Source: Chiloscyllium plagiosum
Lineage: Eukaryota
Length of the DNA stretch: 64,000 nucleotides
Assembly (NCBI RefSeq): GCF_004010195.1
Contig: NC_057757.1
Span: forward strand, 8,590,300-8,654,299
Direction of reading: 5' to 3'
Part shown: positions 12,024 to 64,000 of the stretch, piece after piece
Position numbering within the stretch: the stretch's first letter is position 1
How the letters are laid out: each line of letters opens with the position of its first letter
The notes under the pieces: generated by a model
The model's database searches: none
What the model was told of the DNA's origin: nothing
The model's input: the letters and a program-made list of their open reading frames with translations, nothing else
Translations under genes and position numbers: made by a program

Positions 12024-12236
12024 TGATTCCGAGATGCCGGTGTTGGACTGGGGTGTACAAAGTTAAAAATCACACAACACCAGGTTATAGTCCAACAGGT
12101 TTAATTGGAAGCACTAGCTTTCGGAGTGACGCTCCTTCATCATCACAACCACCTGATGAAGGAGCGTCGCTCCGAAAGCTAGTGTGCTTCCAACTAAACC
12201 TGTTGGACTATAACCTGGTGTTGTGTGATTTTTAAC
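12024..12236. mobile_element. Palindromic Penelope-derived mini-element with hammerhead motif
   Basis: Inverted arms spanning 12062-12236; TSD AGAGAAAAGGAA (12012-12023, 12237-12248); CTGATGA-A-GGAGC-GTC-GCTCC-GAAAGCTA at 12153-12181. Confidence 0.85.
12153..12181 (+). ncRNA. Minimal type I hammerhead ribozyme motif
   Basis: CUGAUGA, extra A, perfect stem II GGAGC/GCUCC, GAAA, palindromic AGCU, putative CUA cleavage triplet; activity untested. Confidence 0.65.
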
Positions 12237-12816
12237 AGAGAAAAGGAAAGCAGCGAAGGTGGACAAGGGGAGAGAGACAAACGAAAATCTGGTCGAAGAG
12301 AAGAGTAGTACTTTTTCAGGGTAGGCATTCCTGGAAGAGAGATGGCAGTGAGTTAAACACTGGAGAAGAGAAAATTACTGCAGTTGCTGGAATCTGAAAC
12401 CAAAAGAGAAAATGCTGGAAAATCTCAGCAGGTCTGGCAGCATCTGTAAGGAGAGAAATGAGCTGACGTTTCGAGTCGAATCTAACTGACCCTTTTGCCA
12501 AAGATTTAAATTCTTGGATCACTGGGCTATGTTTTGCAGTAAGCATAAATTATACAAGAGGGATCCATTACACCTTAATAGGTGGGGGACCAGCATTCTG
12601 GCAGGCTGATTTGCCAATGCAATATAGATGTGGAGGGGGGGTTGGGGACAAACTGGAAATTCATGAAGGAAGCTAAAGGGAAAGTGAAAATCAGAGAAGC
12701 TAAGAAAGGCAACAGGATCAACAGAGCAGTAAACTCAAGAAGGGATCATACAGTATGGTCAAGTGAAATAGGGATTGATAGGAAGGGTGAGGGGAGTAAC
12801 AAATTTAAAATATTAT

Positions 12817-13120
12817 ACCCTGCATGCAGCCTCCAGGATTACAGGTACTTGCATAACTTTGACAAAGCGTCAGTTAGACTCGAAACGTCAGCTCTTTTCT
12901 CTCCTTACAGATGCTGCCAGACCTGCTGAGATTTTCCAGCATTTCTATTTGGGTTCAAGAATTTAAATCCTTGCTTCCTGCACCAGTCCCTCCCCTATCA
13001 GCTTTCCGTAGAGACCACTCCCTCCGCGACTCCCTTGTCAGATCCACACCCCCCACCGACCCAACCTCCACTCCCGGCACCTTCCCTTGCAACCGCAGGA
13101 AGTGCAACACTTGCGCCGTA
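12817..13120 (+). mobile_element. Inverted duplication of 11726-11901 joined to a Penelope ORF linker fragment
   Basis: 12817-12992 is the reverse complement of 11726-11901; it is followed by PPLSAFRRDHSLRDSLVRS...GTFPCNRRKCNTC, resembling the Cys-containing PLE RT-to-endonuclease linker. Confidence 0.8.
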
Positions 13121-13204
13121 AAATCATGCGTATACTTAGGATGAAGAAGATTATGAGTACCACATATGCTTGGTCCAGTTCTTGTTGGATTCATTTGGAT
13201 ATCA

Positions 13205-13578
13205 AAGTTGAAACTTTATTGCTGGAACAGCACAGCAGGTCAGGCAGCATCCAGGGAACAGGAGATTCGACGTTTCGGGCACAGGCCCTTCTTCAGGAAT
13301 GAGCAGAGAGTGTTCAGCAGGAGAAGATAAAAGGTAGGGAGGAGGGACTTGGAGGAGGGGCGTTGGAAATGTGATAGGTGGAAAGAGGTCTTGACCTCTT
13401 TCCACCTATCACATTTCCAACGCCCCTCCTCCAAGTCCCTCCTCCCTACCTTTTATCTTCTCCTGCTGAACACTCTCTGCTCATTCCTGAAGAAGGGCCT
13501 GTGCCCGAAACGTCGAATCTCCTGTTCCCTGGATGCTGCCTGACCTGCTGTGCTGTTCCAGCAATAAAGTTTCAACTT
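13205..13578. mobile_element. 374-bp perfect palindrome of Penelope-type terminal sequence with hammerhead motif
   Basis: 186-bp arms around a 2-nt TT centre (13391-13392); CTGAAGA-A-GGGC-CTGT-GCCC-GAAACGTC at 13487-13514, mirrored on the minus strand. Confidence 0.88.
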
Positions 13579-16027
13579 ATCTACAAGCCCCCAAACAGTA
13601 GTTTGGATGTAGGGGTTAAGTTGAATAAGGTGTTGAATTTGGCCTTTCGCAAAGGTATTACGACAGTTGTTATGGGGGATTTCAACGTACAGGTAGACTG
13701 GGAGAATCAGGATGGTACTGGACCCCAAGAAAGGGGGTTTGTGGAGTTCCTCCGAAATGGATTCTAAGAACAGCTTGTACTGGAGCCTTCCAGAGAGAAG
13801 GCAATTCTGGATCTGGTGTTGTGCAACGAACCAGATTTGATCAGGGACCTCGAAGTAAACGAGCCATTAGGAGATAGTGACAATAATATGATAACATTTA
13901 ATCTGAAATTTGAGAGGGAGAAGGGAGAATCAGAAGTGTTAGTATTGCAGTTGCACAAAGAGAATTATGGAGCCATGAGGGAGGAGCTGGCCAAAGTTCA
14001 ATGTTTCAATACCCCAGCAGGGATGGCAGTGGAACAACAATGGCAGGTATTTCTGGATATAATAAGCAGGTGCAGGATTAGTTCATTCCAAAGAGGAAGA
14101 AAGATCCTAAGGGGAAACAGGGGCAGCCATGGCTAACGATGGAAGGTAAGGCCTGTATAAAGATAAAAGAGAAGTATAACATAGCAAAGATGAGTGGGAA
14201 GCCAGAGGACTGGGAAACTTTTAAAGAACAGAGGATAACTAAAAAGGCAATATGCGGAGACAAACAATGAGGTACGAAGGCAAACTAGCCAAAAATATAA
14301 AGGAGGATAGTAAAAGCTTTTTTCAGGTAAGTGGAAAGAAACAAAATGGTTAAGACTAAAATTGGGTCCTTGAAAATAGAAACGGGTGAATTTATTATGG
14401 GGTACAAGGAAATGGCAGAAGAGTCGAACAGGTAATTTGGATCTGTCTTCACTGGGAAAGACACAAGCAATCTCCCAGATGTAATAGTGGCTGAAGGACC
14501 GAGGGTAATAGATGAACTGAAGGGAATTTCTATTAGGCAGGAAATGCTGTTGGATAGACTGTTAGGTCTGAAGGCTGATAAGTCCCTGGGACCAGATGGT
14601 CTGCATCCCAGGGTACTTAAGGAGGTGGCTCTAGAAATCATGGATGCATTGGTAATCATTTTCCAATGTTCTATAGATTCAATTGCTGCGGATTAGAGGG
14701 GGGGGTAATGTTGTCCCACTTTTCAAGAATGGAGGGAGAGAGAAAACAGAGAATTATAGATTGGTTAGCCTGACGTCAGTGGTGGGAAAAATGCTGGAGT
14801 CAATTATAAATTACGACTCATTTGGATAGCAGTAACAGGATAGGTCAGAGTCAGCATGGATTTACGAAGGGGAAATCGTGCTTTACTAATCTTTTGGAAG
14901 TTTTTGAGGATGTAACTATGAAGATGGACATGGGTTAGCCAGTGGATGCAGTGTACCTGGACTTTCAGAAAGCCTTTGATAAAGTTCTACATAGGACATT
15001 AGTGAGCAAACTTAGGACAAATGGTTTTGGGGGCAAAATACTGACTTGGATTGAAAATTGGCCAGCTGACAGGAAGCAAAGAGTGGTGATACACAGGTCC
15101 CTTTCAGAATGGCAGGCAGTGACCAGTGGGGTACCACAAGGTTCGGTAATAGGACCGCAGCTGTTTACAATATACATTAATGACATAGATGAAGGTATTA
15201 AAATAATATTAGCAAATTTGCTGATGACACAAAGCTGGGTGGCAGGATGAAATGTGAGGAGGGTGATATGAGAATACAAGGCGACTTGGACAGGGTAGGT
15301 GAGTGGACGGATGACATGGCAGATGCAGATTAATGTGGATAAATGCGTGGTTATCCACTTTGATGCCAAGAACAGGAAGACAGATTACCATCTAAATGGA
15401 GTCAAGTTGGGTAAAGGGGAAGTACAATGAGATCGAGAAGTTCTTGTACATCAGCCATTTAAAGAAAGCATGCAGGTACAGCAGGCAGTGAAGAAAACTA
15501 ATGGCATGTAGGTCTTCATAAAAGGAGGAATTAAGTGTAGGAGTAAAGAGGTCCTTCTGCAGCTGTACAGGGGCTTGGTGAGACCGCACTTGGAGTATTG
15601 TGTGCACTTTTGGTCTCCAAATTTGAGGAAGGACATTCTTGTTATTGAGGGAGTGCAGTGTAGGTTCACGAGGTCAATTCCCAGAATGGCAGGACTATCA
15701 TATGTTGAAAAATTAGAGTGACTGGACTTGTATACATATGAGTTTAGAAGGATGAGAAGGGATCTGATTGAGACATATAAGATCATTAAAGGATTGGACA
15801 CTCTGGAGGCAGGAAGCATGTTTCCACTGATGGGTGAGTCCAGAACCAGAGGACACCGTTTAAATATAAGGGGTAGGCCATTTAGAACAGAGTTGAGGAC
15901 AAACGTCTTCACCCAGAGAGTTGTGGATATATGGATTGTTCTGTCCCAGAAGGCAGTGGAGGTTTTGGATTCTTTCAAGAAAGAGATGGATAGAGCTCTT
16001 AGAGATAGTGGAATCAAGGGTTATGGG

Positions 16028-16623: not shown

Positions 16624-16673
16624 TCTCCCCCCTTTGGTCATTTCATGACCATACCATAAAGGCATTGATCAGA

Positions 16674-18640: not shown

Positions 18641-20079
18641 AGTTTGAGTATCACGGGAGTACACTATTTGAGGCTATAATTTGTGCTCTTCAGCAGGCTC
18701 AAAGCCGTAAGAACAATTTTGAAATAAATAATGCTCAAATTAATCAAACTCAAATAGTCCACGGTACTAAATATATTGCTCATACTGGCAAAAATCTCAT
18801 TCATTTTAAACTCTGCACNNNNNNNNNNNNNNNNNNNNNNNNNNNNNNNNNNNNNNNNNNNNNNNNNNNNNNNNNNNNNNNNNNNNNNNNNNNNNNNNNN
18901 NNNNNNNNNNNNNNNNNNNNNNNNNNNNNNNNNNNNNNNNNNNNNNNNNNNNNNNNNNNNNNNNNNNNNNNNNNNNNNNNNNNNNNNNNNNNNNNNNNNN
19001 NNNNNNNNNNNNNNNNNNNNNNNNNNNNNNNNNNNNNNNNNNNNNNNNNNNNNNNNNNNNNNNNNNNNNNNNNNNNNNNNNNNNNNNNNNNNNNNNNNNN
19101 NNNNNNNNNNNNNNNNNNNNNNNNNNNNNNNNNNNNNNNNNNNNNNNNNNNNNNNNNNNNNNNNNNNNNNNNNNNNNNNNNNNNNNNNNNNNNNNNNNNN
19201 NNNNNNNNNNNNNNNNNNNNNNNNNNNNNNNNNNNNNNNNNNNNNNNNNNNNNNNNNNNNNNNNNNNNNNNNNNNNNNNNNNNNNNNNNNNNNNNNNNNN
19301 NNNNNNNNNNNNNNNNNNCACAGCAGTGAATCCTCTGTTAATTAAACCAAAAACCCAGAAAACCTCACCTCGCCTCATAATTTGTTTAAATGTGAATGAC
19401 AGAGAACTCCCCAAATTCCACCAATTAAAGAAAATAACATCAATTTATTTTTTCAACTCTTAAAGTTGAACATTAAACAATACCTATTCACACCTGTAAG
19501 ACCCCATTCCTCTTAACTGCGTAATATCTGAGACCAATCTATAATACTATACTCTTCCAATAAAACAGTTAATAAAATTACATTAACTTCATTTCAAAAC
19601 CTTACAACAGGTTTTAGCTTTGATGTCTGTCTTCTTCCTTTTTACTGTGAATATGTTTCATATGAAAAGGCACCTTTACTAGAGAATATTTCCTAATTTC
19701 TTGGATCTGTGTTGATGCCAGTTGCTCTGTCCGATTTTCAAAATGCCTGCCTTTTTCATATTCCCAACATCGGATCATTTCATTGGTTTGAACTTGGCAA
19801 AACAATAAGGTCAATCGACTGCGTTTTAGAATCTTGGGCCATAATTTGATCTGGTTGTTTAAATTTGAATTGTTGTCATAACAGCAACCAACGCAGGTAT
19901 ACATTTCATAGCCAAACGTTACATATTTTCAATTTTCCTGTACACTCTGAGACTGCTACTTCATCATCACAGGTGCGAGTCAGCTCTAAGTTCAGAACAG
20001 CATTCATTCTCTCTTAAAGATACAGTACGTGTCTTCAACTTCATAACCACCTATGATCAAGGACATGGCCATTCCCCTT

Positions 20080-21260
20080 TTTGATAGATGGAATAAAGGG
20101 GCTGAATGTTATTGAAACAGCGAGAGACTGCAGAAAGTTGCAGCACAGAAGGATTCAGGAGTCAGTTGGCATGTTTTACAGAAACCGGAGCAGTCAAGTT
20201 CAATTGGTAATAGGGAAGGACAATGGGCAGGTGGCCTTTATTTCTGTGGGAAAGGAATGTAGAAAGAGGGCGGTCTTGTTAAAACAGTACAAGGCACTTG
20301 TCAGGATGTCCCTGGAATATTGTGAACAGTTTTGAACCCCATATCTCAGGAAAGATATCCTGGCATTGGAGGCAGCCCAGAAAAGTTTCACTTGGCTGAT
20401 TCTTGGAATAGAGCGATTGTCCAATGAGGAGAGATTGATGAGTTTGGGCCCGTGGTCATTGGATTTTAGACAAATCAGAGGCAACGTCATGGAAGAACCA
20501 AGATTCTTCGAGGTCTTGCCAGGTTGGAAATGGAGAGGTTATTTCCCTTCGTGAGCGAGTCCATGAATTGATGGCATCATCTCAGAATCACGGATTACAC
20601 ATTAAAGACAAAGATGAGGAGGAATTTCTTGTCTCAGAGGAGAGTGAGTGTGTATGACTCTTTACCACAGAGGGCTGTCGATGTTAGGTCTATAAGTATA
20701 TCCAAGGCTGAGGGAGACAGATTTTTAATCAGAAAGAGAATTGAGAGTTATCAAGAAAATGCAGGAAAGTACAATTGAGGATGATCAGATCAACCATGAT
20801 TTTATTGAATGGTGGATCAGACTCAATGATCCAAAAGGCTGACATCTGATCTTCCTTCCTGTGATCCTGAATGTCCTGTTCCATCCTTCCTCACATTCCA
20901 GAATATTTCAATGGCAGGAAGGTGAAGGAACCCAGTTAGTGCTGCCAGAAAACCCACAGAAAATGGTTTCCATTTCATCAATATCGATGGCAGATCATGT
21001 CGAACTGAAGTGGGAATAAATGTCTTCACTCAGAGACTGCTGACCCTGTGGAATTCTCCACCACATAAAGCTGTGGAGCTAATTCACTGAATATACTTAA
21101 GACATGAACAGATTGATTTCTGGATTCATGGTGTCAAGGGTCAACAGTGGGACCATGATATTGAGATAAAGCATCCTTCATCACCATATTGAATGGTTGA
21201 GCAGGCTCAATGGGCCGAATAGCCTACTCTTGCCTGCATTGTCTGTTTCCCGATGCTCTT
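20080..21260 (+). mobile_element. CR1 3' fragments (also duplicated at 27330-29180)
   Basis: YKALVRMSLEYCEQF, FTWLILGIERLSNEERL and CR1 tails. Confidence 0.75.
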
Positions 21261-21814
21261 CGCTACAACAATGAAATAGTTTTGTCAGCCGGGGGTTTAC
21301 TTATCAACAGGACTGTTTCAGTCATACTGGATTACACTTCTGTAAAGTTTTAGTTAGCCCATCTACACCAATCAATTCTAGCCTTTTCCTACAACTGATT
21401 CCAGGAGCATTGGCTAATGGTTACCTTTATTTATTATGCACTTTTGTCAAAAAGTCAGAATACATTTTCAGGAGTGCAGGTCACAGGAATGAATGAGAAT
21501 CTCGGTATTTTCAGGCTCAAGGCCCACTTCAATGAGATATATTACACCAGGCACATCCCCTTTTATTCAATTCCCAAGCACAGATCGGAATCACATTTGT
21601 GCACAGCTTTGTTTTGATTTGTTGATAGGGATGTGAGTGTCTCTGGCAAGGCCAGCATTCATTGGCCCTCCCTAAATACCCAGAGGGCACCTGAGACTCA
21701 GTCACATTGTTGTTGGTCTGGAGTCACATCTAAGCCAGACCCGGTTATGATGGCCTTTCTTTCCCTAAAGGACNNNNNNNNNNNNNNNNNNNNNNNNNNN
21801 NNNNNNNNNNNNNN

Positions 21815-22561
21815 NTTTTTTTCGTCCTTTATTATTTTTATTTCAATCTTCAAATGAATGTATTTAAAATTCCAGAGAGTAAAAGAGAATTCAACGAAAT
21901 AATCCTCACAGACTGACCGCCACAATTAAAAAAATGGTAAGTCAATAGACTTATTAATTACAGAATACAATGAAAGGTTCTCTGACTTTGAGAATCATGA
22001 CATCACACTCAAATTAACATTTCAACCTCACCTAGTTGATGTCTCCAAGGCTCCTAAAGAACTACAGATGGAATTGATTGAGCTCTCAGAAGATGACATC
22101 TTAAAGTCCTTATTTGACGCTAAGAAATATCCAACTGAAATATGGAAAAATGCAACAGAATACCCTTGCCTTCAGCAACATGCACGAAAAATGCTTTCTT
22201 GCTTTTCAACCACTTATTGCTGTGAATCTACATTCTCCTACTTAACCAAAATCAAGACGCCCTTAAGGTCACAAATGACGGATACCCATCTAGAGGATCA
22301 GCTAAAACTGCAGACCTCCATGCTGCAACCAAATATTCAAATGCTTTCCTACAAAAAGCAGTCACAACAAAGTCATTAAAAGGTTAGCTAACTTTAGAAT
22401 TAACTTTTTCATTTTTTTAGTTAGTTAGTACATAATAGTTAGATTTTTACAAAATAATGTGCATTTTGAAGAATATATAACTGAAGTTTCTTGGATGCGG
22501 CCTTATTAGATCACAACTAATACAATGCGGCCTTCCAATATGGAAAGGTTCCCCACCTCTG
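21815..22561 (+). mobile_element. Non-autonomous hAT transposon, copy A (left end in gap)
   Basis: ORF 22068-22379 resembles the hAT C-terminal dimerisation region (YP.L...A..MLSCFSTTYCCESTFS...KT.LRS); right TIR AGGTTCCCCACCTCTG followed by CCCCAGAA. Confidence 0.85.
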
Positions 22562-23372
22562 CCCCAGAACATTACCTTGGCCTCTGGTCACAATCCATTG
22601 ATAGTACCACTCTGCCATTGCCTCCCCTTGACACAAACGTATCAGGCTTTTTGAGTGGAACATCAAAAACATTGTAGAGGTTTATAATGAGGGTCATCGA
22701 TAGGGTGAAGAGCCAAGACTTGCTGTTGGTAATGTCCGTCTACCTACAGCACATGGACTGCAGTAATTAAGAAGGCGGCTCATCCCCATCTTCTGGACAA
22801 TAACAAGGGGTGGGAAATAAATGCTTCCTCACCCAGAGATACTCGCATTCCACGAGATGCTAAAAAACCAAAGGACTTATGTGGATAGTTCAGTTAAGTT
22901 TCTAGTCAAGGGCCCCAGGATGTTGCCAGTGGGGAAATCAGTGATTGTCGCCTCATTGAGCGTCCCCATTGAATAATGCCAACAGTGGATCTGTCTACAT
23001 ACTGACAATTAAACTCTCCCATTATAATTTCTGTGCAATATTGTTTCTTATTTCGCACTGTTGAATTGTTGGTATATAGACTATTTTATTATTGTGCCAG
23101 TTTGGACCAATATTTGAGGTTGACGAGAAAGGATAGGGTTAACTGGTCATGACATGTCCTGCTCATGTACAAACTCCCCTTGCAATAGTTATTGATTTCA
23201 TTACTTACGTTAGTGGTTGTAATTAGGCTCCATTAACTTGGGAACTGATTTTCTGATCTGATGAATTCTCCCTCCTCTAAATAATGGAAGTTTTCTCAAT
23301 CTCTGAAGGACGGAACTGACCAGGTCCTTGATCAGAATAATCAAAATAGTTATAATTTACAAAAGGGAAACC

Positions 23373-25952
23373 ATGTCTCTTAGTTTTATGCCCAAGCTGA
23401 AGATTCTGTGGGCGATCAGTGATATACAGAGAATTTACTATGCGATCTTAGCTGCTGTTGGTGTCCCGGGTAAGTTACACTTTGTGAATGATATTTCAAA
23501 AAGTGGAATGTAATCATATGTGTTATCTTAATTTTCATGCCACTTTGTTTTTGATCTTCCTGGTGTTTTCACAATGACCAGACACCAATAAGAATTCAAT
23601 TTTTCCATGATAATTCATTAACATGTATCATTTGTGAGGCAAATAAATGCTCTCTCTATCAATTTGTCACTTCCTTTTTTTCTTTCTTCCTTTCTTCCTT
23701 CCTTTCTTTCATTCTTTCTTTCCTCCTTTCCTTTTTCTTCCTGCTTTTCTTTGCTCCTGTCTCAGTATATTTCATGCTGTTTTTCTCTTTGCTTCTTTCA
23801 AAATTGCCATTGAAATGGTTTCCTCTAGGAATGGGGCTAAAGAAAAAATAATGAGCAATTCATAAGATGTACCCATGACCGACTGGAATGGATCAAAACA
23901 TCGAAGACTCTGAATGGCTCGTTTCTGTTCCAACATTTCTCTCTTGTTAGAAAATGCGGCTCCAATTTACAAAGTTACTCCTTTTATATTTGCTGAAAAG
24001 CATTTATTTTCTTTTCGTCATGTTTCACTGATCCATGTTTTGTGGCTAAACTCAACACAATTCATCTTTCATTTAGCTACTTAGGAAGCTCACAGAAAAC
24101 CAAGTATTGAAACAATAATTTAAACTTTATTCAGATCTTTCAAGTAAGCAGGTATAAGGCACGTGACCTAACTTCACCCTTACCTGATTAATGGTGAGAT
24201 CTGTCCAGGATTTCAATCAACCGTGGTCTGTCTCTGGACATGTCCAGGATTGTCCAGAGTTGGTCTTCAAAAGTCTTCGGTTGAGCTGTTCTGCTGTTGG
24301 ATCCTTATACAATTTTCTTTCTTTCAAGTTTGTGAAATGACATTAGTGATGATACAGCAGATTTTTTTGATCCTCAGCATTGAGTATATTTTTGGAGGCC
24401 TCAAGACTGCAGCTTGCCTTCTCACCATACATAACTCCGTTGTTTCAGGTTACATTAAAGGTTTGCTTTCCTGCAATTAACCCCTTCACAACATTACTGC
24501 TGAGTGCAGGTCTGAATTGCCCAGTTGTCATGACTGTAGACCATCAAGCAAATGTTATGTCCTCTGACTAAGGGAACACGTTGTTTATGTAACTCCTTCC
24601 CAGGGATGGCCAATGCACATGTTGTTGTAACTGCTATTATTGGTTTCTCATTGTCCTTTTCATCTCAAGAAACAATCTTTTCGGGGATCATCGCTGCTTC
24701 TCTGTGTGTGATATGTTATTCTTTGTGATTCATTCAATCCATGAACATTTATGAAAGTGATGAATTTTACATTGGCACACATGGCTTTGTGCCTTTTTGT
24801 TTGGCTGCACAGTTATCAGTGCCTTTGACTGCAGTTTTTGGAATCCTTTCTGGATGGAATATTAAATAGCAAATTTGTGATAAAGTTTCAGTTTGGTACA
24901 AAAACATGGGCTACCCGTTAACAATGAATTTTAGTATTATACTTCAAATAAAGCAAATTTTTAAAATATCTTCATTATATCTGAGGTATACATTATTAAA
25001 TTTGTTCTCTTCTTTCCAATTAACGTGATTGCAATGATGATCCTGGTTCAGGGGAAGTGTGGCCTTTCCAAATGTGTCACTCATTACCTGGTGGTTATGG
25101 CAGTGGCGGATCAGCTGGTCATTATCTTCGATCTGATACTACGACAAATTCCGATCACATATCGGGGGGAGTTCCTGTTTATGAATTTTGTACGCAGTTG
25201 CAACATCCATGCTGTTCTGCTTTATGTTTCCACAAACTGCTCTGTCTGGTTCACGGTCACGTTCATCTTAGATCGGTTTGTGGCAATCTGTTGCCAAAAG
25301 CTGAGAAGTAAACATTGTACCAAGAAAACAGCGGGTGTCGTTTTAGGAATAGTGACTGTACTAAGTTGTTTGAAAAACATTTTATGGTGTTTTATGTACT
25401 TAATCGATATTGACTTTCTAATAGTCCATGGTTTGTAGAGTACATCTAAATGTAAGTTTTTCAATTGTCTGGCCATTGTTGAATTGATGCATTACATAAT
25501 AACACCATTTATTCCATTTATTTTGATTGTATTGTTAAATAAAGTGACAGTCAGAAATATTATATTAGCCAACAGAGCTCGCAGGAGCCTCCAGGCTCAG
25601 ATGACTGGAGACAGTGCTAGTGACCAGAGATGGGGAGTCGAAGGAAATCCATGATTCTGTTATTTATTAAATGTGGTAATTTCATCACGTTATAGGTGGT
25701 GTTCATTGTTTGTTCTATATTGAAACTATTTCATTACTTGGGATATCCAGTTCCTCTGCCAACATTTTAAGAGAGATTGGCCTCATGCTCCAGCACCTGA
25801 GTTACTGCACAAACACCTTTATTTATGCAGTTACCCAGAGGAAATTCAGAGAAGAGTTGACGAATGGAATAATGTATCCCTTCACAAAGTTGGTCAAATT
25901 AATTTGCCCAAACCTCAAGCCAACATTCAACATTAATACAGCATTTTATTAG
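23373..25952 (+). pseudogene. GPR139/GPR142-like GPCR pseudogene 1 (exon 1 23373-23469; exon 2 from 25020)
   Basis: Exon 1 MSLSFMPKLKILWAISDIQRIYYAILAAVGVP|GTAAGT; acceptor reads AA (25018-25019) instead of AG; exon 2 has CGLSKCVTHYLVVMAVAD, ILDRFVAICC and CTNTFIYAVTQRKFREEL, broken by frameshifts. Confidence 0.88.
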
Positions 25953-26420: not shown

Positions 26421-27304
26421 TGCTATAACACAGCAGTGAATCCTCTGTTAATTAAATCAAATACCCAGAAAACTTCACCTCGCCTCATAATTTGTTAAAT
26501 GTAAATGACAGAGAACTCCCCAAATTCCACCAATTAAAGAAAATATCATCAATTTATTTTTCAACTGTTAAAGTTGAACATTAAACAATACCTATTCACA
26601 CATGTAAGACCCCATTCCTCTTAACTGCGTATTATCTGTCACCAATCTATAATACTATCCAAATAAAACAGTTAGTAAAATTACATTAACTTCACTTCAA
26701 AACCTTACAACAGGTTTTAGCTTTGATGTCTGTCTTCCCTTTTACTGTGAATATGTTTCATATGAAAAGGCACCTTTACTAGAGAATATTTCCTAATTTC
26801 TTGGATCTGTGTTGATGCCAGTTGCTCTGTCCGATTTTCAAAATGCCTGCCTTTTTCATATTCCCAACATCGGATCATTTCATTGGTTTGAACTTGGCAA
26901 TGTGAATATGTTTCATATGAAAAGGCACCTTTACTAGAGAATATTTCCTAATTTCTTGGATCTGTGTTGATGCCAGTTGCTCTGTCCGATTTTCAAAATG
27001 CCTGCCTTTTTCATATTCCCAACATCGGATCATTTCATTGGTTTGAACTTGGCAAAACAATAAGGTCAATCGACTGCATTTTAGAATCTTGGGCCATAAT
27101 TTGATCTGGTTGTTTAAATTTGAATTGTTGTCATAACAGCAACCAACGCAGGAATACATTTCATAGCCAAATGTTATATATTTTCAATTTTCCTGTACAC
27201 TCTGAGAGTGCTACTTCATCATCACAGGTGCTAGTCAGCTCTTAGTTCAGAATAGCATTCATTCTCTCTTAAAGATACAATACGTGTCTTCAACTTCTTA
27301 ACCA
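26421..27304. mobile_element. Possible solo LTR (also 19319-20049)
   Basis: Non-coding block bounded by TGCTATAAC...TCATAACCA-like ends between CR1 fragments; no TSD recognised. Confidence 0.3.
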
Positions 27305-30748: not shown

Positions 30749-30789
30749 ACACAAACGTATCAGGCTTCTTGAGTGGAACATCAAAAACA

Positions 30790-31150
30790 TTGTCGAGGTT
30801 TATAATGAAGGTCATCGATAGGGTGAAGAGCCAAGTTGCTTTCCCTGGGGTTGGGGAGTCCAAAGCTAGAGGGCATAGGGTTAAGGTGAGAGGGAAAAGA
30901 TTTAAAATTGACCTAAATGGTACGGATTATATGCAGAGAGTGGGTCACGTGTGGCGTGAGCTGCCCGATGAAGTGGTGGAGGCTGGTGCAATTAGAACAT
31001 TTAAAAGGCATCTGGATGGATATATGAATAGGAAGGATTCGAGGGATATGGGGTGTTGTTGGCAAATGGGATTAAGTCAGATTGGGATGTGAGGTCGGCG
31101 TGGATTAGTTGGACTGAAGGGGCTGTTTCCATGCTGAATGACAGTATACC
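30790..31150 (+). mobile_element. CR1 3' fragment
   Basis: FPGVGESKARGHRVKVRG...WRELP...FKRHLD plus tail. Confidence 0.75.
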
Positions 31151-39692: not shown

Positions 39693-42600
39693 ATGTCTCT
39701 CAGTTTTCTCACCAGATTGAAGATTTTATGGGCGCTTTATGATATACAAAGGATCTACTTCCCCATCTTGGCTGCTGCTGGTGTCCCCGGTATGTTTTGA
39801 ACTCAAGGTGGTACATTAGTCACCTCAAATTAACAGTTTGTGCTTTTGCTTTTGTTCTGTGTTGCACATTCCTTGACAAATTCAGGTTTCTCTCTTAAAA
39901 ATTGTGCCTCTCTTCAAAAATATTCTGCTGATTTTAAACTGATTTGTGACCACCCCACTTTGCAACATAGAAGTCTTTCATTTATTCCTCTCTCTCTCTT
40001 TATTTCTTTATCTCGCTTGTACTTTGTTCTTTCATTCTTTCTTTATGTTTTCTCTTTCTTTTCTGTTTTTGTTCTTTCCTTCTGCCTTTCCATCTTTCTT
40101 TCTTTTCTTACTCATTTCTTTCTTTATTTATTTCTTTTTCTTCCTTCCTTCTTTCTTCCTTCCTTTCTTTCTTCCTGCATTCTACCATTAATTCTATTTT
40201 CTATCAGATTAATTTATCCCCTTCGATCTGATTAGTTTCCCACCCTGTACCATTAAACCTCCTTCTGGATCCCTCCAACGTTGGAAACATCCTTCCTGCA
40301 TCTTCCCTACCGAATAATGTTCGGATTTTGTAGGTTTCTAGGAGACCTCCCCATCATTCTACTAACTTCTATTGAATATAGTTGTAATCAATCCAATCTC
40401 TCCCTATACTCAATGATTCCAAATCAGTACTCAGCCTGGTAAACTTTCTCTGCATGCTCAATCTTGAATATTATTTCAAGAAATGGTTCATGATATACAC
40501 TAACAGGTTTCCTGCAGGAAAGTGTTGATGCACTTAATATTTATTTATTGCACTGCAAATCATGTAATTCTTCTTTCAGTTATATTTGATAAGTGTGTCT
40601 ACGTTTATAAATGTCATACCATGAGTGCAATGTGTTCGTGTGGAGCAGATGTGTCTTTAGCTCCTGAACTCACCAAACTGGGTCTGCACTCACATTAAGG
40701 CTCAGGTCAAATAAATAATATAGCCGAACATAGAGCAGGAATAAATTATTGCAGATGCTGGAATCTGAACTGAAAACATCAAATGCTGGAAATCACAGTA
40801 GGTCAGGCAGTGTCCATGGGAAATGAGTGAGCTAATGTTTCACATCCAGATGACTCTTCATCAGAGTTGATGTGGAACGGAGACGAGGCAGCATTTCTGC
40901 AATGGTCGGGGTGGGGGGGGGGGGGGTTGGTGGGGAGGGGGAAGGTGGTGGNNNNNNNNNNNNNNNNNNNNNNNNNNNNNNNNNNNNNNNNNNNNNNNNN
41001 NNNNNNNNNNNNNNNNNNNNNNNNNNNNNNNNNNNNNNNNNNNNNNNNNNNNNNNNNNNNNNNNNNNNNNNNNNNNNNNNNNNNNNNNNNNNNNNNNNNN
41101 NNNNNNNNNNNNNNNNNNNNNNNNNNNNNNNNNNNNNNNNNNNNNNNNNNNNNNNNNNNNNNNNNNNNNNNNNNNNNNNNNNNNNNNNNNNNNNNNNNNN
41201 NNNNNNNNNNNNNNNNNNNNNNNNNNNNNNNNNNNNNNNNNNNNNNNNNNNNNNNNNNNNNNNNNNNNNNNNNNNNNNNNNNNNNNNNNNNNNNNNNNNN
41301 NNNNNNNNNNNNNNNNNNNNNNNNNNNNNNNNNNNNNNNNNNNNNNNNNNNNNNNNNNNNNNNNNNNNNNNNNNNNNNNNNNNNNNNNNNNNNNNNNNNN
41401 NNNNNNNNNNNNNNNNNNNNNNNNNNNNNNNNNNNNNNNNNNNNNNNNNNNNNNNNNNNNNNNNNNNNNNNNNNNNNNNNNNNNNNNNNNNNNNNNNNNN
41501 NNNNNNNNNNNNNNNNNNNNNNNNNNNNNNNNNNNNNNNNNNNNNNNNNNNNNNNNNNNNNNNNNNNNNNNNNNNNNNNNNNNNNNNNNNNNNNNNNNNN
41601 NNNCTCGGCATGCTGCGGTGTTCCAGTGAATCACAGCGCAAACTGGAGGAACAACATCTCATCATCAGACCAAGCACTTTAGTCTTCTGGACTTTATAAC
41701 ACCTTCAGATTGGGAACCCACTCCTATTCCTTCCCTTTATTTCAGCGATACTTGTTACATTCTCTATCACTATGACCTCTCTTCCGTCCCCCACCTAGTG
41801 CAGTGAGCCTGTTGTTCTGCCGCTCTGCCATTCTGATGACTTAATCTGCACTGTCAGCACCCTTTCTCCATCAGTTCTCCATCCCCCCACACTATGGCAT
41901 AAATGTTGCCCCCTCGACACTTCACGTCAGCTTTGATGAAGAGTCCTCTAGACTTGAAATCTTAGCTTATCCTCTCTCCATGGATGCTGTGGATATGTGA
42001 CCAGGACGTTGTGTTGAAATTATCAGCTGCGCGAAGGTCAGGGAAGGTGATTGGAATCCTCTTTGCCCCCACTTTCCATCACATTAGCCTCTGTATTCAA
42101 GGGATCATCTTCCACCATTAGTTGTCTTCAGGTCAGATTCCAGCATCTGCAATAATCTATTCCTGTTGTATACTGTGCTATGTTATGTATTTGGTAATAT
42201 TTTGTTGATTACCTTGATGCCAAAACCAAAATTCCTGACACTATGTTAAAGCTAAAAAGAACAAGTTTCAATCATTGGTTGCAAAAACAATGCTGCACTG
42301 TCCCATCTAATTTCAAGTTAAGTTGCAGGATATTAATTGTCCCTCTTCAGAAAGCTACTCTGTTGGTTCAGTGGAAACATATTCAACTTTTCTTATTCGC
42401 AGCAACTTTTAATTGGAAAGGTTATACAAATATCTGTCAGTTGCTAGTGAATAATTCCCCTGTTCGTCTCTTATTTACAGTGAACATAGTCACAATTGTG
42501 ATCTTGTTTCGCAGAAAATGTGGTCTCTCGAACTGTGTCACTTCGTACCTGCTTGCCATGGCAACAGCAGATCTTCTGGTTGTTATCATTGACCTGATCC

Positions 42601-48118: not shown

Positions 48119-49363
48119 AAAGTTGCAGAGGTCTGTCGCAGTATAGTTGAAAGACCTGTAGTCTGTAAGTAAGGCCAGCATGGCTGGGTGGAATAGACAG
48201 CATATGGGAACTATTGGATGTACCATCTTTTCAAGACAATCTACTCTGCCATGGCTGGGCGAGGGTGACCTGCACATTTCAGAACTTGTTCTGCAGATTA
48301 GCAACATCCAAATCAGAACCAATCTAAATAAATGTCTGGTTAAATGTTCACCAGTTGAATTGGAGGTTGATAACAGTGCGGCTGATTCAGTGATTGTTGG
48401 TTTAATTTCCACAGACTGTCGTAAAATGCTTGGCCAAGCCTGGTGGGGTGAAATTGGTTGAGAAAGATTCAATTTGATTGGTTCAACATTATTTGATTTA
48501 AAAACGGGTCCCTGAGATCAACCTGAATTAAATACCTGAAAGTTTTCCAGAAAGATCCAGGGGCTATCAAAGGAGCCAAGGCCACCTTTCATGGTGACTC
48601 AGAAGCAATCCCATGGTTATGCAAGGCTCACCAGTGCCATTTGCCTTAGAGGCAAAAGTAGAGGCAGAAATCAGGAGGTTGGAGAGCGAAGGAATCATCC
48701 AACCCACCCAATTGGTGGAATGGGCAGTGCTGGGCCTACTTATTGTGAAGCCCGACAGGTCGGTTCACCTTTGTGTGGATTTGAAACAAATTGTAAACTG
48801 CATTCAACAGCTGGATAAATACCCAAGCCTTCACGTCGAGGGTTTTTACACAAAGCTGGCAGGGGTTGTGGCTGTCCTTCACGAAGCTGAACATGAGACT
48901 TGTGCAGCTGTAATTGTAATTTAATAAGGATTCCCAAAAATGTGCTACAATTCATACCCAATGGGGTTTGTTAAAACATATGAGAGTGCCATTTGGGGTG
49001 TCATCATCCTGTGCCATTTTCCAGCTGATGATGATGATGGAGAACATTTTGAAAAGTCTATCCCAGCTCTCCATTTATCTGGATGACATGGTAATAACAG
49101 GAAGACTAATAAAGAGCATTTAGAAAACTTGGACATGGTGCTTGATTGTTTCTCCAAGGTGGGTGTGCACCTTCGGAGGGAATAATCTGTGTTTTCAGAC
49201 ACCCCAAGTGACCTACATGGGCTACAAAGTCGACAAGACTGGGTTATACCTTTTGGAAGATAAAGTGAGAGTGATCAAAGGAGCCCCGGCTCCGAGGTCT
49301 ATACCAGAGCTGAGGTCTTTTCTTGGATTGGTGAATTATTACTGAAAACTGAGATGTAACCTG

Positions 49364-54477: not shown

Positions 54478-55005
54478 AGATTCCCTACCGTATGGAAAAA
54501 GGCCATTTGGCCCAACAAGTCCATACTGACCCTCCAAAGAGTAACCACCCAGACCTATTCCCCTACCCTATGTTGACCCCTGACCAATGCACCTAACACT
54601 ATGGGCAATTTAGCATGACCAATTCACCTGACCAGCACATTTTTGGATTGTGGGAGGAAACTGGAGCACCCGGAGGGAACTCACGCAGACACAGGGAGAA
54701 TGTGTAACCTCTGCACAGACAGTGACCTGCAAGAATTGCGCCTGTAAGGCAGCAGTGCTAACCACTGAGCCAGGTGAAAGTGGGGGCTGCAGATGCTGGA
54801 GATCAGAGTCCAGATTAGAGTGGTGCTGGAAAAGCACAGCAGGTGAGGCAACATCCACAGAACAGGAAGATCGACGTTTCAGACAAAAGCCCTCCATCAG
54901 GAATTCCTCATGAAGGGCCTTTGCCCGAAACGTTGACTTTCCTGATCCTCGGGAGCTGCCTGACCGGCTGTGCTTTTTCAGCACCATTCTTACCACCGTG
55001 CTGCC
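54478..55005 (-). mobile_element. HE1-like SINE whose head is split by a palindromic Penelope mini-element
   Basis: Body 54478-54772; 5' GGCAGCACGGTGG at 54993-55005. Confidence 0.8.
54773..54992. mobile_element. Diverged palindromic Penelope mini-element
   Basis: Imperfect arms spanning 54817-54990, centred on AATT 54902-54905; same family as 63005-63220; hammerhead cores mutated (CTCATGA, CTGATGG). Confidence 0.8.
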
Positions 55006-55727
55006 AAAAACAGATCAAGCAGCTTCTCTGAGTGAGGAAGCCTAGTCAACCTTTTGAGTCCTATGACCCTTCTTTAAAACTTGAAATGTTAGCTCTACTT
55101 CTCTCTCCACCAATGCTGCCAGGCCTGCTGCGTTTCTTCAGCAATTTCTATTTTTGTTTCAATTTCCCATCTCATTGCAATTTTGAAGTAAAGTCAAACA
55201 GGATTTGAAACATTAACACTGCTTCTCTCTCCACACTCCTGCTGAGTTTATCCAGCATTATTTGTATTTAACTGCAGAGATACAGTTTTGGACTAGCAAA
55301 AGCTTCTTCATGTTTTATAAGCAAAGGTGGCGTAGTCCAACTCTCATGTTAGCGATATATTTGTTCCATAGTCACTATTATTGTGGTTAGCTTTATATTC
55401 AATGTGTAATTAAATGAATTCATGCTCTACCACATGCTAAAGTAGACTATTAGCCTGGACTATGGGATTGTATAATGTTGCTATAGCCCCAGAGAATCAT
55501 AGAGCTGCTGTCTCAGTATACTGAGATGAGTTTTACTGGTGGTGAGTTTAATCATACCTCAAACATTGGGCAAGGTTGGAAAGGCACGACATTCAAGCTG
55601 ATATCAGCCAGTGCGGGAATTGAACTTTCCACTGTTGGCACCACTCTGCATTACAAACCAGACCCCCAGCCAAATGAGATAACCAACCCCCTCCCGACAG
55701 CAGGTGTTACCCTGTTATACAGGGATC

Positions 55728-57471: not shown

Positions 57472-59638
57472 ATGAGAGCTCCATTCACTTTCTACCCCTT
57501 TCTCGAGCTACCTCCCATTGTACAGATCATAATGGTTTACTATCCAACAATAGCGGCCATTGCCATTCCAGGTTAGTGATTATAACCAGTTTCTAAAGCT
57601 AAAGTGTCTTTGTTTAACTCTGTTACTGACTTTATGTAAATTAGCGAAACGAGAGCTCTAACTTTGATTGAAAGACTAACTACCACAGATAGCGATTATT
57701 TGTTGCTTTCATGTGTTAAAATTGATTGTGTTGTTGAAATCGTTGCAATCTACAAAAACGGCGCCAGCTATTTTAAATTACAGGCAAAACGCCCGTGAAA
57801 GCGCTGTGGAAACATACCAGGTCAGGCCACATAACTGGAGAGAGAATCAGTGCACATTTCACGTCTAGTGTGACTTCTTCAGAGCTTAGAATAATGCAGC
57901 TGTTCTCTTCATTTAATGTCAGCCAAGCTGACACAAGATTCAGAAAGGTGGCACAGTCACAATTGGCTGTATAGCTTCATTCTGTGCTGTAGTAATCCTG
58001 TTATGCTGCCAAAGGTGATTGAAATTTTTTTTTTGCACATTATCAACCTAATTTCTCTTCATTCGTACATAAACCATTTTTGATGTTCATCTGCAAAAAG
58101 ACTCTACACCCTCTAAATTTAAAACCCAATATCGTTTTCTCATAATTCAGAGAATATATGACATTCACGTTGTCCCTGTTGAGGTGAGTAGAACTGAAAT
58201 GCGACACATTGCATTCCATCTACCCTGTCCTTCCTTTATCTCCTGATGCAATTTCTTTGATTTTCCTGCACCCACAAACACTATGCATTTCTATGATCAC
58301 CAACTCGAAAACTGAATCAGCAGCAAACTTGTTTGGGAAGCATTCAATGACCTTAACTATACTATCAACATAGATTATAAATGTAAATGTTCCAAGTATG
58401 ATGTTTACACCATACAGCTCAGTGCAACTTAATAAAATGAAAAAAAGTTATTCCAGCTACTTTGTTTCTTTATTTATTAATCAATATTTTGAGCCTATGT
58501 TACCATAACAACACATAAATCGTCACTGTTGATTGTTCTATGTTGCTCATGTTTTTAGGGAAGGTAATCTTCGATCTTTACCTGTCTAGCTGACACGTGA
58601 CTCCAGACACACAGCAATGTGTTTGCCTCTGAGCTAACTTTTGTGCAATTAGAAATGGATAGTCAATGCTGGCTTTGGCCAGTGATGCTCATATCCATTG
58701 AATGAGCATTCGATAAAGTGTCCTTCTCTTTTACAGCCAACTTGATGACAATCGTGATTCTCTCACGGGGAAATTGTGGTCTCTCTAACTGTGTGACTCG
58801 ATATTTGGTGGCCATGGCAGTGGCAGATCTACTAGTCATTATCAATTATGTGATCCTGACACGAATTAAGGACTCTTATTTCCCGACTAATTTCCTGTTC
58901 ATGACTCCTTTCTGTTCACTGCAATCTGCCCTGAATCATATTTCCACCGACATTTCAGTCTGGCTCACAGTTGCATTTACTTTTGATCGCTTTATTGCTA
59001 TTTGTTGCCACAAACTCAAGACTAAGTATTGCACCGAAAGAACAGCAACCACCGTTATAGGAACTGTCTGTCCAATCTTCTGTTTAAAGAACATACCATG
59101 GTATTTTGCATATGAAGCCTACAATATAACTGGCTTGATCCCATGGGGTTGTAGTAGAAAACTTGAGTATTACACTGTAGCTGCTTGGATAGCATTCAAT
59201 TGGATTCACCGGTGGTTGACACCATTGATTCCAATATTTTTGATATTTCTCTTCAACGCTTTTACTGTAGGACACATTTTGGCAGCGAGTAAAACCCGGA
59301 GGAGACTCAGAGCCAGTCGGAATGATAGGGATCAAAGTGATCCCAAGATACAGAGCAGGAGAAAGTCTGTTATCTTACTCTTTGCCATATCCAGCTACTT
59401 TGTTCTTCTCTGGGTGTCATATGTTGTTTATTTTGTGTTACTCCGCGTTACAACACATTATTACACAACAGGATACAGTGATCCAATGTATATCGCAGAC
59501 CAAACCAGCCACATGCTCCTCCTTTTGAGTTGCTGCACCAACACGTGTATTTATGTGATGACCCAAAGTAAATTTCGAGAGCAGCTAACCAAGCTGGTGA
59601 AATATCCAGTGAAGATTATCTGTAAATCTATTAAATAA
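57472..59638 (+). CDS. GPR139/GPR142-like class A GPCR gene 4, complete, 333 aa (exon 1 57472-57571; exon 2 58737-59638)
   Basis: Exon 1 MRAPFTFYPFLELPPIVQIIMVYYPTIAAIAIP+G|GTTAGT; acceptor TTTTACAG; the phase-1 join gives AIPANL; AMAVADLL, TFDRFIAICC, ECL2 Cys and SCCTNTCIY...KFREQL; no stops. Confidence 0.92.
58550..58710 (+). mobile_element. SINE 3' part ending just upstream of the exon 2 acceptor
   Basis: TTTAGGGAAGG...GTGACTCCAGAC.CACAGCAATGTG...AATGCTGGC..GCCAGTGATGCTCATATCC; reverse complement of the 21625/29560 SINE family. Confidence 0.6.
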
Positions 59639-61490: not shown

Positions 61491-61726
61491 TTTTAGTAGA
61501 GAACAAGGAAATTTGGACTCTTTCATTTAGAAAAGAAAAGGGAGGTTTGGATATCCAGAGTGATCGTTTGACCCGGTTTATGTGTCATTAAAGGCTAGGC
61601 AAATACAAGGCAAAATCAGGATGTTTGTTAGCTTTTATGGAAGCGCGATTTGAGAATGGGTGTGTGAAAGCTGATAGAGAGAAGTAGACAGAAGCTAGTG
61701 AGTTCAACTAGACAATGGCCAAACAG

Positions 61727-61990: not shown

Positions 61991-62159
61991 TCGAAGGAGT
62001 GACATTGTTAGGGAAACCTCATGCTTGCATGGGAATTCAAACTGTGGTATTATTCACTACCCACCCAGCCAACTGAGCTACCCAACGGCTAAAGACAAGC
62101 TCACTGTCTTGATAAAAATATAAAGAACCTTGGTGTGAACCCAGCTTCTTAAGCAAGCC

Positions 62160-62640
62160 AGGATTGATTTAACCAGAGAGGGAGTGCAGAGATGTTTCAC
62201 CAGACCCATCCTGGGATAGGGGAACTTCCACAGGAGGAGAGATTGAGGAAACTGGCTCCTGAATTCAGTAGAATGAGAGGTGATCTCATTGAAACGTACA
62301 CAATTCTTGCAGAGTGTGAGAGGGTGTAACTGTTCGGGATGTTTCCCTTGGTGGGTGAACCTGGATAGTCTCAGAATTCTAAAGAGCGTTATTTAGAATG
62401 GAGGTGAGGACGAATTTCCTCATTCGGAGCTTGCAGAATATTTAGAATTCCTTTCCCGAGGGCCTGTTGGAAGTCAAGCATCAAGCGTGCTCTCGCTAGA
62501 TATCACCAGCTTGATGGGTAATGGCACCAAGGAATATGTGGATTGTCATTGGGAAACAGAATGGTGGAAGGTGATCTGTATTAATGAGGGGAAAGGCATG
62601 AATTGCATCAACTGCTTATTCCCAATTCTATTACCTCTGT
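62160..62640 (+). mobile_element. Degenerate CR1 3' fragment
   Basis: GAATGAGAGGTGATCTCATTGAAAC and GAGGACGAATTTC motifs. Confidence 0.6.
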
Positions 62641-63004
62641 TTATATGTGTTGCCATGTGGATGTGTGCCCAATATAGTGGTGTCAATTTTCCCAGCCACC
62701 TTCATCTTCGTTTCAACCATTAGCTCCAGCACTTCCATTTCACAGGTCAAATCCACCTTCGATTTCCTCTACTTTCATTATTTTTGTAACATAAAGAAGG
62801 GGGTCATCATCTGCCTGTCCTTCCAACAGGGTTCAGTAATATGTCAAAGCAGTTATGGTTGCAAGGTGGGTCAGTGGTTAGGAATGCTTCCTGATCGCGT
62901 GAGAGACCCATGCTCTCCACGTATCTGCGTAGGTTTCCTCTGGGTGCTCTGACTGCCTCCCACAGTCTGATTCAGGTTAGGTGGATTGGTCAAGCTGAAT
63001 TGCC

Positions 63005-63220
63005 GAGAGAAAGTGAGGGCTGCAGATGCTGGAGATCAGAGCTGAAAATGTGTTGCTGGAAAAGCGCAGCAGGTCAGGCAGCATCCAAGGAACAGGAGAA
63101 TCGACGTTTCGGGCATAAGCCCTTCTTCAGGATTCCTGAAGAAGGGCTTATGCCCGAAACGTCGATTCTCCTGTTCCTTGGATGCTGCCTGACCTGCTGC
63201 GCTTTTCCAGCAACACATTT
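63005..63220. mobile_element. Young palindromic Penelope mini-element with hammerhead motifs and 15-bp TSD
   Basis: Perfect arms spanning 63043-63223 around ATT (63132-63134); TSD TCAAGCTGAATTGCC (62990-63004, 63221-63235). Confidence 0.9.
63136..63163 (+). ncRNA. Minimal type I hammerhead ribozyme motif (mirror copy on the minus strand)
   Basis: CUGAAGA-A-GGGC-UUAU-GCCC-GAAACGUC; palindromic ACGU and a GUC triplet; activity untested. Confidence 0.65.
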
Positions 63221-64000
63221 TCAAGCTGAATTGCCCCATAGTGTCTACCGATGTGCAGGCTGGGTGGGTTAGCTCTGTTAATTAGGGTAGAGGGATGTGA
63301 CTGGGTGTGATCCTCTTTGGCGGGTCGTGTGAACTCCACAGGCTGAATGGCCTGCTCCCAAACTGCAGGGATTCTATAATCCATTCTGGATGAGAAGCAA
63401 TTGAAATGCCTTTTGTACCTGGCTTGGCCAAGGGCTCTAGCAGTGCAATGGCAGTGTCTCCACCTCTGAGCCAGGAGGGCCTGAGTTCAAACCCCACTTG
63501 CTCCAAGGTGTGTCATACCATCTCTGAGCAGTTTCCATTGGAAAGTACCCGGGGGGCTTCTGGTAGTCATGTCCTTGAGTTATGGAAGAACCATGTTTGT
63601 GTCCCACCTCCCACCAAGGGGTGTTAGAATATTGTGTTCACTCCAGAGAAGTGTAGGCTTTTGTTGTACATTCATACTATTTAGTTAACACGTTTGGGAG
63701 CAACCGTGGGATTATGGAAAGTGTTTCTGAGGGGACTACCATAGCTTTAGAAGGGGAGATAGGTAGTCAGTGTTATCACAAATCTTGACAAAATGAGAGA
63801 GAACATCAAAAATAAGGTAACTATCAATTATATCCTGTGTAACCAGGGAGAGTCCGCTTTATCACCATGAAATGTAAAACTCACTTTATTTACTGATAAA
63901 TCCTAACTTTAAAGAATTGCAACGTTCCTCTTGAAATTCCTTCATGTGTCTGTCCAGGAGTCTTACATTATCCGTTGTTTATCCAACAGTCTTTCACAGG

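Follow-up and report, generated by a model that had tools for sequence, protein, structure and literature searches.

Four short palindromes carrying minimal hammerhead ribozyme motifs lie in a 64,000-nucleotide stretch of Chiloscyllium plagiosum contig NC_057757.1 (the window, by which we mean this whole stretch). We conclude with high confidence that these hairpins are truncated stubs of Penelope-like elements (PLEs). Each is probably a head-to-head pair of PLE 3′ ends, made of the last 85–190 bases of the element and likely written anew at insertion by priming twice. In several families the copies break off at the 5′ edge of the hammerhead instead of at its cut site, which suggests that the RNA was copied uncut and means that genome data alone could test how the inverted copy arose.

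An earlier note, made from the letters of this DNA alone, had placed hairpins at 12024, 13205, 54773 and 63005, and self-complementary arms confirm all four (Table 1). At 13205–13578 the 186-nt arms stand, but the element truly starts at 13196, where 9 nt of the tail precede the left arm. Every hairpin has its arms oriented in the same way, the hammerhead near the centre and the 3′ end outermost. The hairpins are lopsided, with 36 (12024), 41 (63005) and 42 (54773) extra bases at the left end, so that three of the four bear a one-sided tail of 35–42 nt. Counted from C3 of the hammerhead, the tail-less ends lie at 83, 84, 85 and 91 nt and the tailed ends at 119, 125 and 127 nt. Across the gap-free pairs of the window the one-sided tail is clear in four of five, and the fifth has a 9-nt part of it; at 13196, 167 RNA reads run on into the tail. 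Target site duplications (TSDs) of 12–15 bp, which the earlier note had also reported, flank two hairpins (12 bp at 12024, 15 bp at 63005). Over four insertions the TSD lengths are 12, 15, 15 and 18 bp; the element at 13196 has none and that at 54773 no more than 3 bp.

Hairpin A (self-complementary region 12062–12236, arms 97.5% alike with a 2-nt indel) lies in a family C insertion (11763–12503), inside the N-terminal piece of that insertion's open reading frame (ORF). Hairpin B1, whose centre lies 94 nt upstream of the core, is part of a complex insertion into a long interspersed nuclear element (LINE) and has no TSD. The other two B hairpins are centred on the hammerhead edge: B2 (216 nt) at 63133, with a 41-nt left tail and two intact cores (63136+ and 63130−), and B3 (220 nt) at 54903/54904, with a 42-nt left tail and a TSD of at most 3 bp. 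Judged by arms that are 78% complementary, B3 is an old insertion. The absence of an intact ORF, as first claimed, was borne out: five stop-free frames across hairpins 13205, 54773 and 63005 gave no Pfam match inside any hairpin, and the sole weak match from these frames (E = 0.0024) is the flanking LINE. We take the host LINEs to be CR1-like.

Table 1. Hairpins, hammerhead-bearing ends and PLE coding remnants in the window
Feature	Position	Strand	Description
Solo family C end	3008..3123	−	U3-A8 core; 15-bp TSD with one mismatch, 2993-3007/3124-3138
Family D long inverted pair	4772..6294		Two head-to-head truncated copies, hammerheads outward (4871−, 6167+)
Broken PLE ORF	4933..5659	−	Reverse transcriptase C-terminal part, Cys-rich linker, GIY-YIG start; tblastn with P0001, E 3e-26 and 4e-09
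Broken PLE ORF	5722..5898	+	Endonuclease C-terminus, then 3′ untranslated region and hammerhead end; tblastn with P0001, E 9e-12
Family C insertion in LINE	11763..12503	−	Hammerhead end and tail, ORF N-terminal piece, second hammerhead end; U3-A8 core
TSD of hairpin A	12012..12023	+	12 bp; second copy 12237-12248
Hairpin A	12024..12236		Two head-to-head family A 3′ ends; tail 12024-12061, left side only
Family A minimal hammerhead	12153..12181	+	C3 at 12153, 5-bp helix II, AGCU; predicted cut after 12181
Inverted duplicate of 11726-11901	12812..12992	+	99%; family C end and 40 nt of LINE flank
PLE coding fragment	12983..13114	+	CX2-5CxxC linker; 73% identical to P0001 over 44 aa, E 2e-11
Hairpin B1	13196..13578		Arms 13205-13390/13393-13578, 186 nt, 100%
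B1 minimal hammerhead	13487..13514	+	Helix I 4 bp, helix II 4 bp; mirror copy 13296-13269 on minus strand
Decayed inverted pair	40700..42193		Spans assembly gap; both arms extend beyond tail
Hairpin B3	54773..54992		Arms 54817-54903/54904-54990, 87 nt, 78%; both cores mutated
Decayed three-end cluster	55010..55267		Inverted pair and tandem copy beginning at core
Decayed solo end	57799..57890	−	Arm profile match
TSD of hairpin B2	62990..63004	+	15 bp; second copy 63221-63235
Hairpin B2	63005..63220		Arms 63043-63132/63134-63223, 90 nt, 100%

The hammerhead motifs are far more frequent than chance would allow. A search for CUGAnGA..GAAA with a stem II of at least 4 pairs found six strict cores in the window (12153+, 13487+, 13296−, 63136+, 63130− and 4871−), each followed by ACGU or AGCU, as had been claimed; 100 dinucleotide shuffles of the window gave a mean of 0.22 cores (maximum 2), and of 0.02 with the palindromic tetramer. 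Intact motifs on both arms held for part of the set: hairpins 13205 and 63005, and no others, have two cores each, while the minus-strand partner in hairpin A (12143) lacks C3, its core being interrupted at 12142, and both motifs at 54773 are altered. The minimal type I features (an extra base after A9, G10.1-C11.1 and a palindromic 15.2-16.2) are present at 12153, 13487/13296 and 63136/63130, the older arms having decayed. All four hallmarks listed in the available text of PMC4209133 occur here.

The stems vary between families and stay paired. The three stem II sequences are those that had been described (GGAGC/GCUCC, GGGC/GCCC and GGAUC/GGUCU), and helix II and the 15.2-16.2 pair change from family to family with pairing kept. 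Helix I, which was left out of the search pattern, adds covariation of its own. In 23 related loci, 77 of 92 of its pairs are Watson-Crick (shuffle mean 28, with 77 reached by 0 of 10000 shuffles), and in 12 window arms 35 of 48 (shuffle mean 23.6; 6 of 10000 shuffles), statistics that ignore the kinship of the copies. By these counts helix I covaries, which points to selection on the structure. Family C has U3 and A8 in three of three independent junction copies, a swap that is also reported in Schistosoma (PMC4209133). The folding energy of single motifs gave no support, with no excess over shuffles in four of four window arms (z −0.76 to 0.61), as expected because the minimal motif is weak. 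Rfam returned 0 matches for the whole window at the gathering threshold, and no hammerhead family was among the 68 matches up to E 10 over 11700–13650. We rejected the microRNA matches in that interval as generic hairpins far under their cut-offs.

Coding remnants tie these ends to PLEs. The fragment at 12962–13120 is 82% identical, over most of its 53 amino acids, to whale shark protein P0001, which has Pfam RVT_1 and GIY-YIG matches and for which we found 96 longer relatives. Broken ORFs matching P0001 are joined directly to family D ends, and the hammerhead at 6167(+) lies ~270 nt 3′ of the endonuclease C-terminus. The motif that had been noticed at ~4850 is thus the end of a 1.5-kb inverted pair with PLE coding sequence, and there is no short hairpin at that place. 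Families B and C are tied in through their common end sequence: the ends of B, C, D and E can be aligned, and all four have the core and a downstream motif in common. An ORF N-terminal piece downstream of the family C tail matches at E 7e-07 to 2e-04; a protein search with this 49-aa piece gave no match. None of the PLE ORFs in the window is intact, and Pfam recognized 0 families in 12 frames of decayed PLE coding sequence, for which tblastn with relatives was needed.

The same arrangement recurs outside the window. We retrieved 90 related loci with an alignment of 18 P0001-related proteins, among them the best 80 of 544 metagenome matches. A strict sense motif follows within 900 nt of the ORF end in 17 of the 54 loci that include that end and at least 300 nt downstream, against a shuffle expectation of 0.2 in all 90, and several of the 90 have an inverted copy of the end. 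The exact DNA pattern of the B/C/D end had 0 matches in the metagenome, viral and prokaryote collections, and no related PLE ORF was found in viral contigs. The window remnants have a CX2-5CxxC linker at ~13090–13114(+) and 5170–5144(−) that is invariant in the alignment of relatives. This linker, upstream of GIY-YIG, is described as common to Neptune/Nematis and absent in Penelope/Poseidon (PMC8557442, available text). Linker and domain order, from which we use the term Neptune-type, point to Neptune or Nematis rather than Poseidon for the coding remnants. On sequence grounds, the motif-bearing ends of families B, C and D belong to endonuclease-positive (EN+) PLEs: a reverse transcriptase/GIY-YIG ORF, a 3′ hammerhead, an inverted truncated copy with tail and a TSD are all found. 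Of the two origins that had been offered for the hairpins, truncated PLE insertions are supported by the ORF remnants joined to related ends, the one-sided tail, the TSDs and the motif that follows the ORF in related loci.

The inner ends of the copies are not scattered. They could be placed for 19 arms (left out were the duplicate at 12812 and the fragments 54474 and 42110, which have no motif), and 11 of these, from 7 of 10 insertion events, stop within −4 to +3 of C3 (binomial probability 1e-7 for arms and 5e-6 for events, p0 = 0.09). At the predicted cut site, 0 of the placeable arms end. Ends at the hammerhead edge occur in families A, B, C and F, whether as hairpins, solo ends or tandem copies. 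RNA points to the same place. In one run (X21, a polyA single-cell library; 2888 reads on both strands over 12800–13391), depth falls fivefold at the edge, from 1099 at 13284 to 223 at 13304 and 221 at 13323, and 208 loose read ends of mixed sequence (agreement 0.4) lie at 13300. Since about half of the reads past the step have the letters of another subfamily, divergence does not account for all of the fall. Joints in DNA contigs, 15 of 97 of which were listed, fall at varied places, and contigs cannot show perfect hairpin centres.

These observations would fit the following sequence of steps. The PLE reverse transcriptase-endonuclease would nick both target strands 12–18 bp apart, and one cDNA would begin at each of two internal RNA sites ~40 nt apart, hence one tailed and one tail-less end. 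Both cDNAs would pass the uncut hammerhead, often dropping off a few bases beyond it, most likely at the RNA 5′ end, and would be joined via 1–5 nt of microhomology into a hairpin between the TSDs. The hammerhead would be a passenger from the parent element. We hold with considerable confidence that hairpins are rebuilt at each insertion, and we favour twin priming over fold-back, somewhat less firmly, for the second arm. The RNA 5′ end as the cause of the pile-up is an evenly balanced proposition; the stop could alternatively be due to stalling of the reverse transcriptase at the structure, to a splice junction (the case at helix I in Drosophila virilis) or to microhomology.

Several observations weigh against this scheme. 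Boundaries were placed by eye, with a recognisable junction partner in 9 of the 11 edge ends; the end at 3105 is placed only within 18 nt and that at 57882 is uncertain, because the native upstream untranslated regions (UTRs) of different families do not align. The depth step could be due in part to other subfamilies with diverged UTRs, and no piled-up RNA starts or ends were found in X21, a weak test given its library type. Only 1 of 11 second copies in related ORF-bearing loci stops at the edge (L083, at −3), the rest lying at −46 to below −700; these copies do not support a universal edge rule, in a comparison that is uneven, the loci having been picked for length. Hairpin centres were counted in the window. 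In the D. virilis element, transcription begins 46 bp ahead of an intron of 75 bp (PMC2377424), and the end of this intron maps to helix I (PMC4209133); by these two accounts the element's RNA does not start at the hammerhead. The pair at 40700–42193 is an exception to the one-sided tail. Family A, a single copy with no linked ORF and no likeness to the other window ends, is provisionally filed with the PLEs by its hammerhead, tail and TSD only. The conservation of the core above its flanks that had been anticipated was not significant between B1 and B2 (0/23 against 7/57 differences, p = 0.18). Perfect arms, finally, fit fold-back equally well.

Under fold-back, the hairpins would still be of PLE origin, and the second arm would be made by the first cDNA, or an antisense RNA, priming on itself from its 3′ end at a short palindrome. 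Such self-priming on an antisense template has been proposed (PMC3846280, available text), short, near-perfect palindromes occupy the centres at 54903 and 63133, and the arms of B1 and of B2 are each 100% complementary though B1 and B2 differ by 9%. Fold-back alone leaves the set 36–42-nt shortfall of the shorter arm unaccounted for, however; the inner ends of hairpin A are unequal (+1 and ~−10), and the pair at 4772–6294 holds different coding parts on its two arms. We regard it as the most serious competitor to twin priming, though an unlikely one. An assembly artefact would also produce perfect hairpins, and the window does contain gaps and near-identical duplications, with no listed contig spanning 12800–13391. 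Two hairpins are nevertheless flanked by TSDs, the arms differ from each other within 12024 and 54773, and the tail asymmetry repeats in four pairs, so that we consider an artefact very improbable. Less credible still are DNA transposons of the MITE (miniature inverted-repeat transposable element) kind, with long terminal inverted repeats and an incidental hammerhead: short, non-coding, palindromic and TSD-flanked as the hairpins are, their TSDs vary in length, they have a tail on one side only, they are accompanied by solo and tandem forms, and related ends adjoin reverse transcriptase/GIY-YIG coding sequence, which largely refutes this reading.

The other origin suggested in the earlier note was a self-propagating, non-autonomous ribozyme element. 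In such a family the stubs would be transcribed, and a PLE enzyme would re-insert in trans either a short RNA headed by the hammerhead or the entire palindrome, as in SINEs (short interspersed nuclear elements) or retrozymes. Such PLE derivatives exist (bioRxiv 10.64898/2026.07.22.740005 and PMC8557442, as far as the accessible text goes), 50130 and 35950 contigs matched to 592 bases show the family to be very abundant, its hammerhead-bearing end is far better covered than the upstream UTR, and two B hairpins of similar length share their centre within one base. These two are only 81–84% alike and differ at the junction, however, and the third B centre lies elsewhere. Asking whether ends and centres are fixed or variable gave a divided answer in the three B copies, which are 81–91% alike: the outer ends are fixed and the centres are not (−94, −3/−4 and −2/−4). 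The test cannot discriminate cleanly, since in separate families the centres cluster at the hammerhead edge. The sharing of that edge by families A, B, C and F across hairpin, solo and tandem forms speaks against a fixed unit, as do RNA reads on both strands (mean depth 605 and 427 at 13280–13299) with no sharp starts. The join of ORF start to hammerhead in family C is rare (contig depth 134 against 226535), which also led us to rule out family C as a mobile two-hammerhead mini-unit. Non-LTR (long terminal repeat) retrozymes, which have been found in one chondrichthyan genome, resemble the hairpins in being non-coding, with a type I hammerhead, and related to the pseudo-LTRs (pLTRs) of PLEs (bioRxiv 10.64898/2026.07.22.740005, in part). 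They are head-to-tail tandems with two same-strand hammerheads, whereas the window hairpins are head-to-head with one sense motif per strand, and the window has no array of head-to-tail units with complete hammerheads; a hairpin, moreover, would be predicted to bury its ribozyme. The evidence did not support self-propagation, which we consider improbable.

A more speculative extension of twin priming is that the PLE end is a self-contained transcription unit. Full elements and stubs alike would give a short RNA starting a few bases before the hammerhead, which would be copied uncut from two internal starts, the hairpin being rebuilt by twin priming. We think this unlikely on present evidence. 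If true, the stubs would form a SINE-like population that renews itself and is headed by a ribozyme, and the unresolved second-strand step of Penelope insertion would have left its fossils in the hairpins.

Folding bears on what a hairpin transcript could do. The suggestion that read-through RNA would form long double-stranded RNA (dsRNA) is supported by prediction: the probability of helix II is 0.0 in four of four whole hairpins and 0.84–1.0 in the isolated arm. The sense hammerhead is accordingly predicted to be buried in double strand within the hairpin transcript. We ruled out a cis dimer of the paired hammerheads, since the two motifs are on different strands and the sense one would be buried within the hairpin. 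No RNA ends are listed for X21, which is a weak test of cleavage. Published minimal hammerheads are reported to cleave weakly as dimers (PMC4209133) or to need PLE protein (PMC11167929), in the text available of each. As a measure of editing, sites with A>G or T>C were set against those with C>T or G>A, giving 63:68 in RNA run X21, 18:40 (p = 0.04) in X1 and 30:52 (p = 0.12) in X9, from different individuals and mixed subfamilies.

Much of this architecture is already published, namely the minimal hammerheads, the opposite-strand pairs and the inverted copy with its tail; the kind of insertion is known. Minimal hammerhead ribozymes (min-HHRs) are known in the pLTRs of metazoan PLEs, with dual motifs ~100–700 bp apart on opposite strands (PMC4209133). 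The window motifs resemble them in the core, the extra base between 9 and 10.1, G10.1-C11.1, the palindromic 15.2-16.2 and the short helix I, and likewise in having many consensus families per genome, a U3-A8 variant and mostly stubs. They differ in that opposite-strand pairs stand as close as 6–10 nt, in perfect hairpins, and in a helix II of 4–5 bp, against 7–8 bp in Schistosoma. The available text of PMC4209133 makes no mention of sharks or of a breakpoint pile-up. Complex insertions of EN+ PLEs combine an inverted 5′-truncated copy, a pLTR and a one-sided 30–40-bp tail (PMC8557442, PMC3846280 and PMC8969392, each in the part available), and share with the window the head-to-head copies, the one-sided tail, junction palindromes and microhomology joins. 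Their TSDs are 8–10 bp, against 12–18 bp here, and unlike them the window copies are both cut to the last 85–190 nt, with inner ends at the hammerhead edge.

A biochemical parallel to the scheme proposed here is the Anolis Poseidon element PAc (PMC11167929, available text). In vitro, both target strands are cut and extended, and two internal reverse transcription starts bound the tail; insertion has no need for hammerhead cleavage, and no RNA ends lie at the cut site. The two internal starts, the extension of both strands and the dispensable cleavage all resemble what we propose. PAc belongs to the Penelope/Poseidon clade, however, and its ORF begins inside the hammerhead, whereas the window remnants have the Neptune/Nematis CX2-5CxxC linker, and the text available gives no model of the inverted copy. 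In Creative Commons PMC and bioRxiv literature we found nothing on a breakpoint pile-up at the hammerhead or on short PLE palindromes in sharks; subscription papers and supplements may cover both. PLE hairpins would easily be misfiled as MITEs or microRNA-like hairpins, and the main value of the present assignment is in correct annotation. The genome also offers very many natural min-HHR variants, including the U3-A8 core, for questions of cleavage, and transcription of long perfect hairpins close to a cluster of receptor genes, if it occurs, could give dsRNA.

Beyond the four hairpins, a profile of the arms has 21 matches in the window, 20 with E ≤0.005. Together with both family A arms they fall into about five families: A (12024), B (three hairpins), C, D/E and the decayed F/G. 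The claim of several families therefore stood, with A and B among the four hairpins, and family C had been missed. Other forms are solo ends (3008–3123 and 57799–57890), same-strand pairs (11763–12503, with the first core damaged, and 55079–55267) and long inverted pairs (4772–6294 and 40700–42193). The family D pair at 4772–6294 has a tail on the right only and decayed PLE coding sequence in the middle. The family C insertion is flanked by an 18-bp TSD (11745–11762/12499–12516), and on the minus strand a candidate start codon near 12328 is immediately preceded by a possible splice acceptor. It forms part of a complex LINE event over 11726–13578, in which the inverted duplicate is followed by a PLE coding scrap, 72–80 nt of single-copy sequence and hairpin B1; LINE sequence has been lost, there is no TSD, and the single-copy stretch also occurs in related organism B.

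Among the related loci, L083:228-745, which is not from a shark, resembles the hairpins in its small layout: an inverted end stops 3 nt before the core, repeated hammerhead scraps mark the junction, the direct end is longer, and ~17 bp are duplicated in the flanks. Ten loci (L081–L090, eight of them in one assembly) are animal-type PLE ORFs in prokaryote genome records, most likely host contamination.

The rest of the window contains a cluster of related single-exon rhodopsin-family receptor genes at 24965–25438, 33432–34280, 42198–43285 and 58706–59638 (Pfam 7tm_1, three tested). The last has an open frame of 310 aa; that at 24965 is cut short at 157 aa, and that at 42198 runs into a gap. Segments 19319–22724 and 26429–30840 form a near-identical duplication (95–99%) of ~3.4 kb with internal tandem repeats, beside an assembly gap, which is either a recent segmental duplication or an assembly artefact. 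Remnants of a hAT transposase C-terminus lie inside it at 21930–22379 and 30097–30501, and LINE and hAT remnants are present in the window. Directly after a gap, 43790–48120 is a satellite with a 56-bp period (28-bp subunit) and ~70% identity between units.

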